A stretch of 64,000 nucleotides of DNA from Octopus vulgaris (taxonomy: Eukaryota): positions 170,562,001-170,626,000 of the forward strand of contig OX597817.1 in the NCBI GenBank assembly GCA_951406725.2. Direction: 5' to 3'. This document shows, in pieces, positions 23,700-56,580 of the stretch. Below the pieces are notes generated by a model. The model did no database searches, was not told the DNA's origin, and saw only the letters and a program-made list of their open reading frames with translations. Position numbers and translations under genes: made by a program. Each line of letters begins with the position of its first letter. Position 1 is the first letter of the stretch.

Positions 23700-24466
23700 C
23701 TTTGTGGTACCAGTGCCGGTGGCACATAAGAAAAACATCCGAACGTGGCCGTAGCCAGTACCGCATCGACTGGCCTCCGTGCTGTGGGCACGTAACAAAC
23801 ACCATCCGATTGTGGCCGTTCGCCAGCCTCGTCTGGCACCTGTGTCGGTGGCATATAAAAAACACCATCCGATCGTGGCCGTTTGCCAGCCTCGTCTGGC
23901 ACCTGTGTCGGTGGCATATAAAAAACACCATCCGAGCATGGCCGTCTGCCAGCCTCGTCTGGCGCCTGTGTCGGTGGCACATAAAAACACCATCCGATTG
24001 TGGCCGTTCGCCAGCCTCGTCTGGCACCTGTGTCGGTGGCACATAAAAACACCATCCGATTGTAGCCGTTCGCCAGCCTCGTCTGGCACCTGTGTCGGTG
24101 GCACATAAAAAACACCATCCGAGCGTGGCCGTTCGCCAGCCTCGTCTGGCACCTGTGTCGGTGGCACATAAAAACACCATCCGATTGTAGCCGTTCGCCA
24201 GCCTCGTCTGGCACCTGTGTCGGTGGCACATAAAAAACACCATCCGAGCGTGGCCGTTCGCCAGCCTCGTCTGGCACCTGTGTCGGTGGCACATAAAATC
24301 ACCCACTACACTCTCGGAGTGGTTGGCGTTAGGAAGGGCATCCAGCTGTAGAAACACTGCCAGATTTGACTGGCCTGGTGCAGCCTTCGGGCTCCCCAGA
24401 CCCCAGTTGAACCGTCCAACCCATGCTAGCATGGAAAGCGGACGTTAAACAATGATGATGATGATG
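23700..24466 (+). mobile_element. Family D retroposon with internal minisatellite and (GAT)n tail
   Basis: 3' part matches other family D copies; ends GCGGACGTTAAACAATGATGATG. Confidence 0.85.
23796..24298 (+). repeat. Tandem repeat, 8 x 62-63 bp
   Basis: ACCATCCGA recurs at 23801, 23864, 23927, 23989, 24051, 24114, 24176, 24239. Confidence 0.95.
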
Positions 24467-24599: not shown

Positions 24600-25558
24600 C
24601 AGTACTACCAGCATCACAGTAATATCCACAAGGAACATTAGTTTGAAACAACCAGAGCTGTTAATGTATTATTATATAGTAGTCAACTGGTTCTGTCTTC
24701 AGTACAATACAGTTCTTCAGGTCTGCCAGCCTTACATTACTTCCCACCAGTTCTACCAGCATCACAGTAATATCCACAAGGAACATTAGTTTGAAACAAC
24801 CAGAGCTGTTTATGTATTATTATATAGTAGTCAACTGGTTCTGTCTTCAGTACAATACAGTTCTTCAGGTCTGCCAGCCTTACATTACTTCCCACCAGTT
24901 CTACCAGCATCACAGTAATATCCACAAGGAACATTAGTTTGAAACAACCAGAGCTGTTTATGTATTATTATATAGTAGTCAACTGGTTCTGTCTTCAGTA
25001 CAATACAGTTCTTCAGGTCTGCCAGCCTTACATTACTTCCCACCAGTTCTACCAGCATCACAGTAATATCCACAAGGAACATTAGTTTGAAACAACCAGA
25101 GTTGTTTATGTATTACTATATAGTAGTCAACTGGTTCTGTCTTCAGTACAATACAGTTCTTCAGGTCTGCCAGCCTTACATTACTTCCCACCAGTTCTAC
25201 CAGCATCACAGTAATATCCACAAGGAACATTAGTTTGAAACAACCAGAGTTGTTTATGTATTACTATATAGTAGTCAACTGGTTCTGTCTTCAGTACAAT
25301 ACAGTTCTTCAGGTCTGCCAGCCTTACATTATGTCTCACCAGTTCTACCAGCATCACAGTAATATCCACAAGGAACATTAGTTTGAAACAACCAGAGTTG
25401 TTTATGTATTACTATATAGTAGTCAACTGGTTCTGTCTTCAGTACAATACAGTTCTTCAGGTCTGCCAGCCTTACATTACTTCCCACCAGTTCTACCAGC
25501 ATCACAGTAATATCCACAAGGAATATTGGTTTGAAGCAACCAGAGCTGTTTATGTATT
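24600..25558. repeat. Tandem repeat, ~6.5 x 148 bp
   Basis: Near-identical units; track ORFs recur every 148 bp. Confidence 0.95.
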
Positions 25559-30959: not shown

Positions 30960-33900
30960 TAGCACCACCACAAGCTACCACCACAGCCACCACAACAACA
31001 ATAGTCACCACCACAACCACCAGCACTGCCACCACCAACACCACCACAGCCACAACCACAACTACAGCCACAACCACAACCACCATTGTGTCACCACCAC
31101 AGCTACCTCCACAACCACCACCACCACCACTACCAACACCACAGTCACAACCACAACCACCATTGCTTCGACCACCACTTCCACCACCACCACCACCACC
31201 ACCACCACCACAACCACAACCACAACCACCATTGCTTCCACCACCACTACCACCACCACCACCACCACCACCACAACCACAACCACCATTGCACCACCAC
31301 CACCACCACCACCACCACAACCACAACCACCATTGCTTCCACCACCACCACTTCCACCACCACCACCACCACCACCACCACCACCACCACCACCACCACC
31401 ACCACCACCACCATTTTCCACCACCACCACTTCCACCACCACCACCACCACCACCACCACCACAACCACAACCACAACCACCATTGCTTCCACCACCACC
31501 ACCACCACCACCACAACCACAACCACAACCACCATTGCTTCCACCACCACTTCCACCACCACTACCACCACCACCACCACCACCACAACCACAACCACCA
31601 TTGCTGCCACCACCACTTCCACCACCACTACCACCACCACCACCACCACCACCACAACCACAACCACAACCACCATTGCTTCCACCACCACTTCCACCAC
31701 CACTACCACCACCACCACAACCACAACCACAACCACAACCACAACCACCATTGCTGCCACCACCACTTCCACCACCACCACCACCACCACCACAACCACA
31801 ACCACAACCACCATTGCTGCCACCACCACTTCCACCACCACTACCACCACCACCACCACCACCACCACCACAACCACAACCACCATTGCTGCCACCACCA
31901 CTTCCACCACCACTACCTCCACCACCACCACCACCACCACAACCACAACCACCATTGCTGCCACCACCACTACCACCACCACCACCACCACCACCACCAC
32001 AACCACAACCACAACCACCATTGCTTCCACCACCACTTCCACCACCACTACCACCACCACCACCACCACCACAACCACAACCACCATTGCTGCCACCACC
32101 ACTACCTCCACCACCACCACCACCACCACCACAACCACAACCACAACCACCATTGCTTCCACCACCACTTCCACCACCACTACCACCACCACCACCACCA
32201 CCACCACCACAACCACAACCACCATTGCTGCCACCACCACTACCTCCACCACCACCACCACCACCACAACCACAACCACCATTGCTGCCACCACCACTAC
32301 CTCCACCACCACCACCACCACCACCACAACCACAACCACAACCACCATTGCTTCCACCACCACTTCCACCACCACTACCACCACCACCACCACCACCACA
32401 ACCACAACCACCATTGCTGCCACCACCACTACCTCCACCACCACCACCACCACCACCACAACCACAACCACAACCACCATTGCTTCCACCACCACTTCCA
32501 CCACCACTACCACCACCACCACCACCACCACAACCACAACCACCATTGCTTCCACCACCACCACCACCACTACCTCCACCACCACCACCACCACCACCAC
32601 CACAACCACCACCACCATTGCTTCCACCACCACTTCCACCACCACCACCACCCACCACCACCACAACCACAACCACAACCACCATTGCTTCCACCACCAC
32701 TACCTCCACCACCACCACCACCACCACAACCACAACCACCATTGCTGCCACCACCACTTCCACCACCACCACCACCACCACCACAACCACAACCACCATT
32801 GCTTCCACCACCACCACTTCCACCACCACCACCACCACCACCACCACCACCACCACCACCCACCACCACCACCACCACCACCATTCCACCACCACCACCA
32901 CTTCCACCACCACCACCACCACCACCACCACCACCACCACCACCACCACCACCACCACCACCACAACCACAACCACAACCACCATTGCTTCCACCACCAC
33001 TTCCACCACCACCACCACCACCACAACCACCACCATTGCTTCCACCACCACTTCCACCACCACTACCACCACCACCACCACCACCACAACCACAACCACC
33101 ATTGCTGCCACCACCACTTCCACCACCACAACCACCACCACCACACCACCACCACCACAACCACAACCACAACCACCATTGCTTCCACCACCACTTCCAC
33201 CACCACTACCACCACCACCACAACCACAACCACAACCACAACCACAACCACCATTGCTGCCACCACCACTTCCACCACCACCACCACCACCACCACAACC
33301 ACAACCACAACCACCATTGCTGCCACCACCACTTCCACCACCACTACCACCACCACCACCACCACCACAACCACAACCACCATTGCTGCCACCACCACTT
33401 CCACCACCACTACCTCCACCACCACCACCACCACCACAACCACAACCACCATTGCTGCCACCACCACTACCTCCACCACCACCACCACCACCACCACAAC
33501 CACAACCACAACCACCATTGCTTCCACCACCACTTCCACCACCACTACCACCACCACCACCACCACCACAACCACAACCACCATTGCTGCCACCACCACT
33601 ACCTCCACCACCACCACCACCACCACCACAACCACAACCACAACCACCATTGCTTCCACCACCACTTCCACCACCACTACCACCACCACCACCACCACCA
33701 CAACCACAACCACCATTGCTGCCACCACCACCACCACCACCACCTCCACCACCACCACCACCACCACAACCACAACCACCATTGCTGCCACCACCACTAC
33801 CTCCACCACCACCACCACCACCACCACAACCACAACCACAACCACCATTGCTTCCACCACCACTTCCACCACCACCACCACCACCACCACCCACCACCAC

Positions 33901-34832
33901 AACCACAACCACCATTGCTGCCACCACCACTACCTCCACCACCACCACCACCACCACCACAACCACAACCACAACCACCATTGCTTCCACCACCACTTCC
34001 ACCACCACTACCACCACCACCACCACCACCACCACCACCACAACCACAACCACCATTGCTTCCACCACCACCACCACCACTACCTACCACCACCACCACC
34101 ACCACAACCACAACCACCATTGCTTCCACCACCACTACCTCCACCACCACCACCACCACCACAACCACAACCACCATTGCTGCCACCACCACTTCCACCA
34201 CCACTACCACCACCACCACCACCACCACCACAACCACAACCACAACCACCATTGCTGCCACCACCACTTCCACCACCACCACCACCACCACCACCACCAC
34301 CACCACCACCACCACCACCCACCACCACCACCACCACCACCACCACAACCACAACCACCATTGCTGCCACCACCACTTCCACCACCACTACCACCACCAC
34401 CACCACCACCACCACAACCACAACCACCATTGCTGCCACCACCACTTCCACCACCACTACCTCCACCACCACCACCACCACCACCACCACCACCACCACC
34501 ACCACCACCACCACCACCACCACCACACAACCACAACCACCATTGCTGCCACCACCACTTCCACCACCACTACCACCACCACCACCACCACCACAACCAC
34601 AACCACCATTGCTGCCACCACCACTTCCACCACCACCACCACCACCACCACAACCACCATTGCTGCCACCACCACTTCCACCACCACCACCACCACAGCC
34701 ATAACCACAACCACCATTGCTGCCACCACCACTTCCAGCACAGCTACCTCCACCACCACCACCACCACAGCCATAACCACAACCACCATTGCTGCCACCA
34801 CCACTTCCAGCACAGCTACCACCACCACCACT
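30960..34832. repeat. ~3.9-kb complex (CCA)n-derived satellite
   Basis: Recurring module (CCA)n-(CAACCA)1-4-CCATTGCT(G/T)CC-ACCACCACT(T/A)CC. Confidence 0.95.
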
Positions 34833-41921: not shown

Positions 41922-41970
<49 letters not shown>

Positions 41971-42147
41971 TTGAGTAGTTGAATGAATTATCTTGTTATG
42001 GATAATTCGGTTAACCGATACCTGGGTAGCAAATTCACATCAGAGAAGACACGTTTGAAGTTACGTGCTTTCATGTGGAAATTTGTATGTTTTTTTTTAA
42101 ATATAAATATATGAAAGAATGGAGTTGAACAACGAATTAACAAAATT

Positions 42148-42242
42148 CCTTTATTTTCGACATATGTTTCGAAGGCTGCATATTCCTAATTGCGAAGGAA
42201 TAAGGAGTACATTATGCCGCTTTCTCATCAGGAAAAGCAAGG
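42148..42242 (-). ncRNA. Type I hammerhead ribozyme (left palindrome arm)
   Basis: CCTTGCTTTTC-CTGATGA-GAAAGCGGCATA...TATGCAGCCTTC-GAAA-CATATG-TC-GAAAATAAAGG; C17 at 42159. Confidence 0.8.
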
Positions 42243-42280
42243 AACTTATGTCAACATCAATCTTGATGTTGACATAAGTT

Positions 42281-42375
42281 CCTTGCTTTTCCTGATGAGA
42301 AAGCAGCATAATATACTCCTTATTCCTTCGCAATTAGGAATATGTAGCCTTCGAAACATATGTCGAAAATAAAGG
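42281..42375 (+). ncRNA. Type I hammerhead ribozyme (right palindrome arm)
   Basis: CTGATGA 42292-98, G10.1-C11.1 pair 42299/42352, GAAA 42353-56, palindromic CATATG stem III, GUC triplet 42362-64, stem I TTTTC/GAAAA plus distal CCTT/AAGG. Confidence 0.8.
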
Positions 42376-42420
42376 AATTTTGTTAATTCGTCATTCAACT
42401 CCATTCATTCATTTATTTAC

Positions 42421-45798: not shown

Positions 45799-46754
45799 AT
45801 AGGCAGTGAACTGGCAGAAACATTAGCACACCAGGTGAAATGCTTAGCGGTATTTCATTTGCCACTACGTTCTGAGTTCAAATTCCGCCGAGGTCGACTT
45901 TGCCTTTCGTCCTTTCGAGGTCGATTGAATAAGTACCAGTTACGCACTGGAGTCGATATAATCGACTTAATCCGTCTGTCTGTCCTTGTTTGTCCCCTCT
46001 GTGTTTAGCCCCTTGTGGGTAGTAAATATATAGGTATTTCGTTTGCCGCTACATTCTGAGTTCAAATTCTGCCGAGGTCGACTTTGCCTTTCATCCTTTC
46101 GAGGTCGATTAAATAAGTACCAGTTACGCACTGGGGTCGATGTAATCGACTTAATCCGTTTGTCTATCCTTGTTGGTCTCCTCTGTGTTGAGCCCCTTGT
46201 GGGTAGTAAAGAAATAGGTATTTCGTCTGCCACTACGTTCTGAGTTCAAATTCCGCCGAGGTCGACTTTGCCTTTCATCCTTTCGAGGTCGATTAAATAA
46301 GTACCAGTTATGCACTGGGGTCGATATAATCGACTTAATCCGTTTGTCTGTCCTTGTTTGTCCCCTCTGTGTTTAGCCCCTTGTGGGTTGTAAAGATATA
46401 GGTATTTCGTTTGCTGCCACATTCTGAGTTCAAATTCCGCCGAGGGCAGCTTTGCCTTTCATCCTTTCGAGGTCGATTAAATAAGTACCAGTTATGCACT
46501 GGGGTCGATGTAATCGACTTAATCCGTTTGTCTATCCTTGTTTGTCCACTCTGTGTTTAGCCCCTTGTGAGTAGTAAAGAAATAGGTATTTCGTTTTCTT
46601 TATGTTCTGAGTTCAAATTCCACCGAGGTCGACTTTGCCTTTCATCCTTTCAGGGTTGATAAATTAAGTACCAGTTGTATACTGAGGTCGATCTAATTGA
46701 CTGCCTCCCCCCACCTCCCACAAAATTTCCAGCCTGGTGCCTAGAGCAGAAAAG
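45799..46754 (+). mobile_element. Family B SINE multimer: one head plus ~5 tandem 184-bp bodies in a single 15-bp TSD
   Basis: TTCTGAGTTCAAA at 45870, 46054, 46238, 46422, 46605; ATATTCTGTTGAAAT at 45784-98 and 46755-69. Confidence 0.9.
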
Positions 46755-51819: not shown

Positions 51820-52250
51820 AGGAATCCACTTAGTGTGAGATTCAACACATTAGAGAGAACATCTAGGTTCTATAAACCACAAAAATAACGGATAAAATTC
51901 GACAGGAATAAATTTGGAAATGAGGTTGGACCTCGCCAAAGAAGATCAGACCTTGCGAGTTCCCCTGACTTGCTAAATGAAGATCAGAAACCAATTTGGT
52001 CTGGGGTACTAGATGGTAAATGTTTTTCATTTCCAAATTTATTCCTGTCGAATTTTGTCCGTTATTTTTGTGGTTCTCTAATGTGTTTAATCTCACACTA
52101 AGTGGATTCCTTATGTGTATAAATATGCACTATCGTATGACTAATATATAGTCTTCTTGACTAATTTTTTTGCATGTTAGACCACTGGAAATGTAAATTT
52201 TGTTTGGATATTTTAAATTTAATTAAATTCCATTTCCCTTTGATATGATT
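51812..52250. mobile_element. Fold-back element in (TA)n
   Basis: Arms 51812-51923 / 52027-52120; spacer has hammerhead-like 3' half GAAACCAATTTGGTC. Confidence 0.7.
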
Positions 52251-52518
52251 ATATATTTATATATATATATATATATATATTTTTAAACATAAGGATAAAA
52301 TCTTTATAAGAAATTATCAGTAGTTTGCATGAAAAACCTCGCAAGAGAAAAAATCTGTAAATTTTTTCAACTTTGAAATATTTATTTATATTATATAGAG
52401 GGTACTATTATTCATAGGTACCGCACGCTAGGAGGGACTTTTGCAGTCAAAACTACTAAAATAAACAAATTGTACCGAATGCAAAACTTCAAAGCAAGTC
52501 ATTTAAAAACAGAATTTA

Positions 52519-52582
52519 GTTACATATCACCTGTGATTTCGCAATCAATGCAGAATATGCATTCTATGCTCTTCAGTGCAAC
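52519..52582 (-). ncRNA. Type I hammerhead ribozyme, canonical core
   Basis: GTTGCA-CTGAAGA-GCA-TAG-AATGCA-TATTC-TGCATT-GAT-TGC-GAAA-TCAC-AG-GTGA-TA-TGTAAC; all three stems pair; predicted cut between 52525 and 52524 (AUA). Confidence 0.88.
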
Positions 52583-53010
52583 AAACTCAAGACATATAAG
52601 AAAAATCACATTACATACCCGACAACCAACCGTAGAATTCGCCGCAGCATGTACGAATGTTTATCTTTACATATCTATGAAAATGGCGGGCTTTTTCGCA
52701 ATGCATTTTGGTAACAACTTGCCTACTCGGAACAAAAATTCAGTATTGAACTATTCCGGTGAAAAATATAAATTTAAAAATAAGGATAAAATCTTTATAA
52801 TAAATTATCAGTAGTTAGCGTGAAAAACCTCGTAAGAGAAAAAATCTGTAAATTTTTTCAACTTTGAAAATATTTATTTATATTATATAGAAGGTACTAT
52901 TATTCATAGGTACCGCACGCTAGGAGAGACTTTTGCAGTCAAAACTACTAAAATAAACAAATTGTACCGAATGCAAAACTTCAAAGCAAGTCATTTAAAA
53001 ACAGAATTTA

Positions 53011-53074
53011 GTTACATATCACCTGTGATTTCGCAATCAATGCAGAATATGCATTCTATGCTCTTCAGTGCAAC
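53011..53074 (-). ncRNA. Type I hammerhead ribozyme, canonical core
   Basis: Identical to 52519-52582; predicted cut between 53017 and 53016. Confidence 0.88.
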
Positions 53075-53502
53075 AAACTCAAGACATATAAGAAAAATCA
53101 CATTACATACCCGACAACCAACCGTAGAATTCGCCGCAGCATGTACGAATGTTTATCTTTACATATCTATGAAAATGGCGGGCTTTTTCGCAATGCATTT
53201 TGGTAACAACTTGCCTACTCGGAACAAAAATTCAGTATTGAACTATTCCGGTGAAAAATATAAATTTAAAAGTAAGGATAAAATCTTTATAAGAAATTAT
53301 CAGTAGTTAGCGTGAAAAACCTCGTAAGAGAAAAAATCTGTAAATTTTTTCAACTTTGAAAATATTTATTTATATTATATAGAGGGTACTATTATTTATA
53401 GGTACCGCACGCTAGGAGGGACTTTTGCAGTCAAAACTACTAAAATAAACAAATTGTACCGAATGCAAAACTTCAAAGCAAGTCATTTAAAAACAGAATT
53501 TA

Positions 53503-53566
53503 GTTACATATCACCTGTGATTTCACAATCAATGCAGAATATGCATTCTATGCTCTTCCGTGCAAC
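53503..53566 (-). ncRNA. Mutated hammerhead copy (probably impaired)
   Basis: U4>G (CGGAAGA, position 53559) and C11.1>U (53525). Confidence 0.75.
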
Positions 53567-54035
53567 AAACTCAAGACATAACAAAAAACACAACATTACA
53601 TATATATATATTTGTATATGTATATATAATGGGTGTGCAAATATGTATGTATGTTAGTATGTATGCATTCATATAAATATAAGTGTGTGTATATAGAGGC
53701 TGTTACTAGAATGGGAGTGTAAATTAGTGTGTGTGTTATTGTATGGTGGTGCATAGCAAGTTTGCTGCGTTAATGCAAGCAATGTATGTATGTATGTATG
53801 TGGTGGAATTCAAGTATGACTCATTTCGTAGTTGATGTACTTACCTCTGGAAGTACATTTAAATATACCCTACTGCAGAATTATATGTTTACATCATATG
53901 CTAATGTCAATATTTACACAAGCTACTTCTATTTAATAAGAATATATAAACACGGAATTGAGTGCATATATCTGCATATATATATAACAGGAAGCTTTAC
54001 GAAAATAAACAAAAGACGAAGGCAGGTGGAGTACA

Positions 54036-56342: not shown

Positions 56343-56460
56343 CATTTACAGCACCTAGGTTTTCCAAGCAGTCGCCCATCTAAGTACTAACTAGGTTCAA
56401 CGTTGCTTAACTTCGGTGATCGGATGAGAACCGATGTTTTCAAAGTGATATGGCCGTAGA
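56343..56460 (-). pseudogene. 5S rRNA pseudogene (near full length)
   Basis: Minus strand TCTACGGCCATATCACTTTGAAAACATCGGTTCTCATCCGATCACCGAAGTTAAGCAACG...GTTAGTACTTAGATGGGCGACTGCTTGG...GTGCTGTA matches invertebrate 5S rRNA; solitary with several substitutions. Confidence 0.9.
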
Positions 56461-56580
56461 AGACACTTGCTGTAGCTGCCATGCAGTGGGACTGAACCTG
56501 AAACAACATGGTTTGGAAGTGAACTTCTTTAACTACACAGCTACACCTGCACAAAGCCTCACCTATACCATACTCATGAA

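Follow-up and report, generated by a model that had tools for sequence, protein, structure and literature searches.

A dispersed hammerhead retrozyme of Octopus vulgaris whose insertion ends point to Penelope-like elements

The 492-bp hammerhead repeat in the window (the whole 64,000-nt stretch of Octopus vulgaris DNA analyzed here) is best read as one insertion of a dispersed, noncoding hammerhead element, an animal non-LTR retrozyme, that was likely inserted in trans by a Penelope-like element (PLE); we place the probability of this reading, including the circle-based mechanism proposed below, at roughly 0.55. PLE-driven insertion from two sites on the RNA is very probable, and a 492-nt circle as the template is favored at slightly better than even odds. 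Judged by its sequence, the family belongs, as an unexceptional case, to the animal non-LTR retrozymes and is neither an autonomous PLE nor a satellite; its value likely lies in the genomic evidence that it provides for two-site priming of retrozyme insertion by PLEs. It offers a PLE insertion footprint in hundreds of countable copies and names two reverse transcriptase (RT) start sites together with a conserved RNA domain. An intact young Neptune-type PLE resides in the same genome, and trans-mobilization, the choice between circular and linear templates, and double priming are directly testable in a published in vitro PLE assay.

The tandem array and its ribozymes

The array on the minus strand has a period of 492 bp, 2.7 copies, and a 97% match between copies (TRF) and lies between TA-rich tracts, as the first-pass annotation had described. 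Positions in the predicted monomer (window 52525-53016, minus strand) are prefixed with q, where q1 is the first base past the predicted cut; S1 and S2 are the two recurrent 3′ ends of the family. The features of the locus are as follows.

52275-53602, minus strand: whole insertion of 2.7 tandem units, reading q400-492, q1-492, q1-492, q1-251 on the ribozyme strand
52275-52283, minus strand: 3′ end of the insertion, placed at S2 (q about 245-251) and continuous with the (TA)n tract of 52250-52280
53590-53602, minus strand: 5′ truncation at q about 400, next to a short TA tract
53011-53074, minus strand: intact type I hammerhead with its CUGAAGA core at 53068-53062 and a predicted cut (AUA) at 53017/53016
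52519-52582, minus strand: second intact hammerhead, predicted cut 52525/52524
53503-53566, minus strand: third hammerhead with the core change CGGAAGA, likely inactive judging by sequence
52525-53016, minus strand: predicted 492-nt monomer between both intact cut sites, 65% paired when modeled as a circle
52870-52884, minus strand: internal copy of S1 (q about 133-147), an AU-rich linker just 3′ of a hairpin
52766-52869, minus strand: internal copy of the roughly 104-nt tail from S1 to S2 (terminal copy at 52275-52377)
52816-52922, minus strand: conserved RNA domain around S1, with closing helix UAGCGUG/CACGCUA and a hairpin at 52893-52914
52436-52779, no strand: 344-bp tract identical to 52928-53271, from local homogenization or assembly polishing
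52836-53306, plus strand: stop-free frame of 156 codons, antisense to the ribozyme; it is open in subfamily A alone and is unlikely to be a gene

With a type I descriptor we found two intact hammerheads on the minus strand (H17 at 53017 and 52525), compared to a mean of 0.017 hits per window in 60 shuffled windows, so that two consecutive tandem units carry a type I hammerhead, as expected of a retrozyme. The earlier statement that each copy holds a full type I hammerhead is correct for these two copies but not for the third, whose CGGAAGA core is accompanied by a C-to-U change in stem II. Both canonical motifs are backed by the descriptor and by stems conserved with compensation: in an alignment of 28 ribozymes from subfamilies A to C, pairing is kept in 93.4% of cells, and subfamily C has replaced both partners of two stem II pairs (C-G to U-A, A-U to G-C), compensatory changes that represent two or three events on a three-subfamily tree and not independent repeats. 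Conservation of the hammerhead core among homologues, a test named in the first-pass annotation, is evident in the same alignment. Subfamily C has a CUGAUGA core and mostly an AUC site; subfamily B has a perfectly palindromic stem III, and its first stem II pair is mismatched (A.C). A search with the Rfam hammerhead models, which had been suggested as a check, returned no family match to the window motifs, either at gathering thresholds or at E<=10.

Stem III had been drawn as UCAC/GUGA, a form that would close a 2-nt loop; it is instead a near-palindrome, AUCACAGGUGAU, whose computed energy is -11.2 kcal/mol for a duplex between two molecules and 0 kcal/mol for a hairpin. Its pairing probability in the monomer is 0.2 to 0.3, and that of stems I and II is 0.77 to 0.96. 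Because stem III is nearly palindromic, weak in the monomer, and stable between molecules, folding models identify the window ribozyme as a dimer-type hammerhead; according to PMC4209133, hammerheads with such a stem III require dimers. Taken by itself, the ribozyme segment shows no folding advantage over shuffled sequences (z about -0.3), and the whole 492-nt monomer folds better than they do (z -3.6).

The unit has a GC content of about 30% (low GC being defined as <45%), and its ribozyme strand is noncoding, with no frame longer than 57 codons. An RT plus GIY-YIG frame, the mark of an autonomous PLE, is absent from both the unit and the window. The 156-codon antisense frame has a frequency of about 0.001 in shuffles and is unexplained; we rejected it as a gene because fixed stops interrupt it in subfamilies B and C, where 0 and 3 of 24 alignments, respectively, are free of stops, and it has no Pfam or Atlas match. 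Identity over 344 bp between neighboring units has a chance of about 3e-5 at the 3% within-insertion divergence of the family and points to local conversion, duplication, or assembly polishing; because of this tract, the copy number of the window array may partly owe to such later events. The 2.7 copies had been offered as a sign of rolling-circle reverse transcription, but given this identical tract and the exceptional length of the array they are no evidence for it.

Dispersed copies and their two 3′ ends

At least 1,016 dispersed ribozyme junctions with no more than 2 mismatches occur in the 2.8-Gb genome, along with 189 exact matches to the 3′ half of the ribozyme, and reversed controls gave none, which agrees with the genome-wide dispersal anticipated in the first-pass annotation. 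A similarity search with the unit gave 2,210 candidate loci, of which the best 40 were scored. Most copies are pieces shorter than one unit, and there are two sister subfamilies, B at 85 to 89% and C at about 80%. Many dispersed copies thus exist alongside autonomous PLEs, as is typical of retrozymes, and assignment to that class, which had been proposed, is supported by tandem type I hammerheads, low GC, absence of coding capacity, and dispersal together with PLEs. The accompanying term satellite does not suit the family: its 3′ ends keep to two fixed sites, the majority of copies fall short of one unit, and instead of long head-to-tail arrays the longest insertion seen is the window 2.7-mer (1,328 bp), with the other 122 insertions reaching at most about 905 bp.

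Across 183 loci and three subfamilies, 251 of 267 ribozyme-strand 3′ ends fall at S1 (115) or S2 (136), in intervals (q128-154 and q234-253) that together make up about 10% of the unit; these loci were picked by similarity or exact patterns, those of subfamilies B and C via queries reaching S2, and the set leaves out the loci of the window itself, three additionally retrieved sequences, and 34 loci that were duplicates or nested. S1 lies about 147 nt and S2 about 251 nt past the cut. A stricter pass, in which 156 loci were grouped into 122 insertions, placed 155 of 173 3′ ends at S1 or S2, and TA directly follows 128 of these 155, indicating a microsatellite (TA)n target. The 5′ ends are spread, with about 10 to 15% of arms ending per 25 nt (91 arms with the exact q101-125 pattern); truncation is geometric, with a mild excess of ends at q385-420. 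The window insertion has its 3′ end at S2 and its 5′ truncation at q400 and lacks an inverted arm.

Rolling-circle reverse transcription that began at any phase of a circle and so built a satellite would produce a noninteger tandem array and seamless junctions, as observed, but the geometric 5′ truncation and the mostly submonomer copies speak against it, and the variable, random start phase expected earlier is refuted by the fixed positions of those 251 of 267 3′ ends. We therefore give this account next to no credence.

Two outward 3′ ends are present in 85 insertions: 73 combine S1 with S2, 1 combines S2 with S2, none combines S1 with S1, and 11 have an unclassified end. The S1 plus S2 arrangement therefore accounts for 73 of 74 classifiable inverted insertions, and for 58 of 59 in subfamily A alone (p about 9e-17). 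A tail-to-tail retrozyme pair at L113:1061-1529, in which S1 faces S1 across a TA tract, is the sole orientation exception. The family thus shows the PLE signature of fixed 3′ ends with 5′ truncation and of an inverted, 5′-truncated copy with a tail on one end; PLE insertions are described as having 5′ truncation, inverted copies, and a 30- to 40-bp tail on one end (Craig et al. 2021, PMC8557442). Two-site PLE insertion is indicated because the S1/S2 3′ ends, TA adjacency, and S1 plus S2 pairing match this one-sided tail, and because S1 and S2 correspond to the pair of internal sites at which RT starts in the anole PLE, between which its tail lies, downstream of the hammerhead (PMC11167929, Frangieh et al. 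2024). The Penelope-type RT named as mobilizer in the first-pass annotation gains support from the same ends, TA adjacency, and inverted pairs. In the RNA domain around S1, the hairpin shows compensatory changes between subfamilies and the 7-bp closing helix is nearly invariant (21 sequences).

Another account starts from solo pLTR debris of an autonomous PLE that was amplified locally to a minisatellite by unequal crossover, the scenario of Li et al. 2026. It draws on the homogenized 344-bp tract in the window array and on the matches of Xenopus retrozymes to pLTRs (bioRxiv 10.64898/2026.07.22.740005). Against it, the unit junction and the q252-492 spacer reappear in numerous independent insertions that have fresh S1/S2 ends and are spread over many contigs, and no PLE coding sequence was found beside retrozyme 5′ ends; the few nearby PLE fragments are separate insertions, located beyond the TA tract or downstream. 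This origin is largely refuted for the family and very improbable overall, and it may account for the extra unit at the window locus.

Penelope-like elements and the RNA template

A search for GIY-YIG domains yielded 148 matches among the best 150 scored of 6,136 candidates, 16 of them with an open 781-aa frame that carries an RT plus a GIY-YIG domain at the C terminus (Pfam) and represents a Neptune-type PLE. Its copies are 95 to 99.7% identical, and an extra upstream 479-aa frame overlaps the 781-aa frame. The linker motif is Cx4CxxC, as described for Neptune/Nematis (PMC8557442), and the pLTR has a U3-A8 hammerhead variant and CCAAT/CRE-like repeats. The 13 copies whose ends we compared all end in (TA)n, in two ways (10 short, 3 with a 33-nt tail). 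The young copies are found at L184-L193, for example:

L187:1068-4768 (G000:C6:133342700-133351700): young Neptune-type PLE

Other PLE families are also present in the genome. We found no retrozyme homology to an autonomous PLE or pLTR in 40 GIY-YIG loci (of the 6,136 candidates), the one retrozyme match among these loci (L171) being a separate copy, and the likeness of the S2 motif to the Neptune-type tail is not significant (shuffle test, best p 0.011 of 35 comparisons). At L031:3005-4682, a 1.68-kb element whose single frame of 300 aa weakly resembles a zinc knuckle and has no Pfam match is inserted at q390 of a retrozyme copy with a 15-bp target duplication, and the locus is triplicated; we rejected it as the parent PLE because it is a nested element with that duplication.

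In the mechanism that we propose, a tandem transcript would self-cleave via dimeric hammerheads with palindromic stem III, and a host ligase would close the cleaved RNA into a 492-nt circle. A PLE protein (RT-GIY-YIG), probably a dimer, would then nick both strands of a (TA)n target, and one nick would prime reverse transcription within the RNA at S1, the other at S2. Each RT would fall off after a few hundred nucleotides, and the two cDNA ends would be joined head to head, or a single arm would be joined to the flank.

Arms that reach the cut site mostly cross it (48 of 61). The remaining 13 stop in q1-26 (p about 0.03 versus the mean rate), with only 1 at q1, and could mean that a share of the templates were linear after cleavage or that the RT stalled at stem I. 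No pile-up of 5′ ends exactly at the cut was seen (3 arms within q488-5), and no ligation or jump scars were found there: indels occur at 1 in 872 aligned positions near the cut versus 324 in 37,555 elsewhere, and in only 1 of 87 junctions. Because most arms cross without a scar, the template appears to have been mostly continuous across the cut, either as a ligated circle or as an uncut multimer.

If it was an uncut multimer, PLE two-site insertion would have used an uncleaved linear tandem or read-through transcript, with the hammerhead inherited from a pLTR and no circle needed. The anole PLE can do without ribozyme cleavage and mainly copies uncut, unprocessed RNA (PMC11167929); seamless junctions fit a linear template equally well, the 5′-end excess at q385-420 could mark a transcription start, and stem III is weak in the monomer. 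However, arms of 800 to 900 nt need sources of at least 1.7 units, and hardly any source comprises two full units or more: three tandem junctions occur only in the window array among 100 of the at least 1,016 junctions, and none of the 122 other insertions exceeds the length given above. This rarity favors a circle as the supply of long templates, and the related retrozymes of mussel, coral, and axolotl form circular RNA (Cervera & de la Pena 2020, PMC7229834). We regard the linear template as possible, at well under even odds. What counts against the PLE circle model is that no partner with a homologous pLTR was found, together with the ribozyme data from anole and from Xenopus, in which 8 of 9 retrozyme dimers did not cleave in vitro (bioRxiv 10.64898/2026.07.22.740005), the subfamily B mismatch, the arms that stop soon after the cut, and the likeness of S1 and S2 to the TA target, which has no parallel in the anole.

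The two arms of an insertion tend to share sequence variants. Lineage-diagnostic sites are discordant in 6.5% of comparisons within an insertion (tandem 12/183, inverted 14/216) versus 41.7% between insertions, and 14 site pairs carry variants seen in one insertion only yet in both of its arms; this sharing could come from one dominant source locus at a time. Inverted arms could also be made if one cDNA (or an antisense template) folded back and primed itself, with an endonuclease then trimming the other site, a model put forward for rotifer PLEs (PMC3846280). One arm could lie inside the other in 49 of 70 two-arm insertions, and in 14 of 70 both inner ends are within 12 nt of the same unit position compared to 5.6 in permutations (p 0.0006). 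In the other 21 of 70, though, neither arm is contained in the other, and these insertions cannot be fold-back copies for that reason; inner ends differ by more than 25 nt in 50 of 70, and two RTs meeting on one RNA would also give coincident stops. The coincident ends fit either such meetings or fold-back in a subset, and as a general explanation we judge fold-back unlikely.

Returning to the circle, a tentative and more specific reading is that one self-cleaved, ligated 492-nt molecule is primed twice, at S1 and S2, by a dimeric Penelope RT at a single (TA)n target, so that both enzymes would copy the same molecule and sometimes meet. If true, double priming would explain the strict S1 plus S2 rule, the rare variants shared by arms, and the excess of coincident arm stops, and it would supply the missing insertion step of retrozymes as well as a minimal RNA cassette for PLE-driven insertion.

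Parts of the 492-bp unit are present in data of four organism labels, and among the listed data sets holding the unit none is on record as RNA. In four contig sets that we guess to be RNA, possibly DNA, coverage falls mainly on q430-492 plus q1-251 and some contigs bridge the cut site; contig sets under the same guess have loose TA ends at S1 and S2 in two organism labels. The low coverage of q252-430 in these contigs is not evidence, because poly(A) libraries lose circles and the contigs may be DNA.

Related systems and other features of the window

The closest known systems are the animal non-LTR retrozymes, with which newt satellite 2 and Sm-alpha rank. Like other animal non-LTR retrozymes, including the Mytilus family, the octopus family has an AT-rich, noncoding tandem unit with one type I hammerhead and occurs as dispersed monomers, dimers, and short multimers together with PLEs. 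Its 492-bp unit is longer than the 170 to 400 nt given in PMC7229834 and within the 51 to 972 bp given in bioRxiv 10.64898/2026.07.22.740005. Dependence of retrozymes on PLEs has already been proposed in both sources (the latter by Li, Clavereau & Pollet), where the link rests on shared ribozymes, co-occurrence, and pLTR homology and the route back into DNA is stated to be open; fixed 3′ ends, a tail, and inverted arms are not described for retrozymes in the accessible portions of either. In our literature search, mostly of freely readable papers, we found no cephalopod retrozyme and no tail or inversion signatures in retrozymes; the accessible text of a squid genome paper counts 235 hammerheads without analysis.

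The octopus insertions resemble those of EN+ PLEs (PMC8557442; PMC3846280; PMC11167929) in 5′ truncation, partial tandems, an inverted 5′-truncated copy, a tail on one end, a microsatellite target, and two RT start sites downstream of the hammerhead. Unlike those elements, the octopus retrozyme lacks an RT-endonuclease frame, and its tail is about 104 nt versus 30 to 40. S1 and S2 share TA microhomology with their target; in the anole element, the start sites have no homology with the DNA that is cut (PMC11167929). MRC1, a nonautonomous Chlamys element, is likewise a noncoding PLE dependant with head-to-tail insertions (PMC8557442), but elements of its type share 3′ sequence with their autonomous partner and most Chlamys elements are described as having no hammerhead, whereas the octopus retrozyme has a conserved, canonical-size hammerhead and no partner homology was found for it.

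A second, unrelated hammerhead family is present in the window at 41962-42420, where two inverted copies sit head to head between (TA)n tracts; the core is CUGAUGA, stem III is palindromic, H17 lies at 42159 and 42364, and one arm only has a tail, of roughly 140 nt. This family has 2,229 candidate loci, the best 40 of which match at 97 to 100%; longer copies reach upstream to a TATA-like and CRE-like region, and no PLE coding match was found within 1.5 kb. It is either a young PLE pLTR or another nonautonomous family.

The window also contains an isolated 5S rRNA match (56343-56461, minus strand, 93.5 bits) and a degenerate (CAC)n array of 3.8 kb (31006-34831). A 148-bp tandem with 6.5 copies at 98% (24600-25558) includes CUGAAGA and a hairpin; we rejected it as a canonical hammerhead because CAAA replaces GAAA. 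Two further tandems, of 63 bp and 184 bp (23705-24298 and 45849-46702), presumably resemble stacked SINE pieces.
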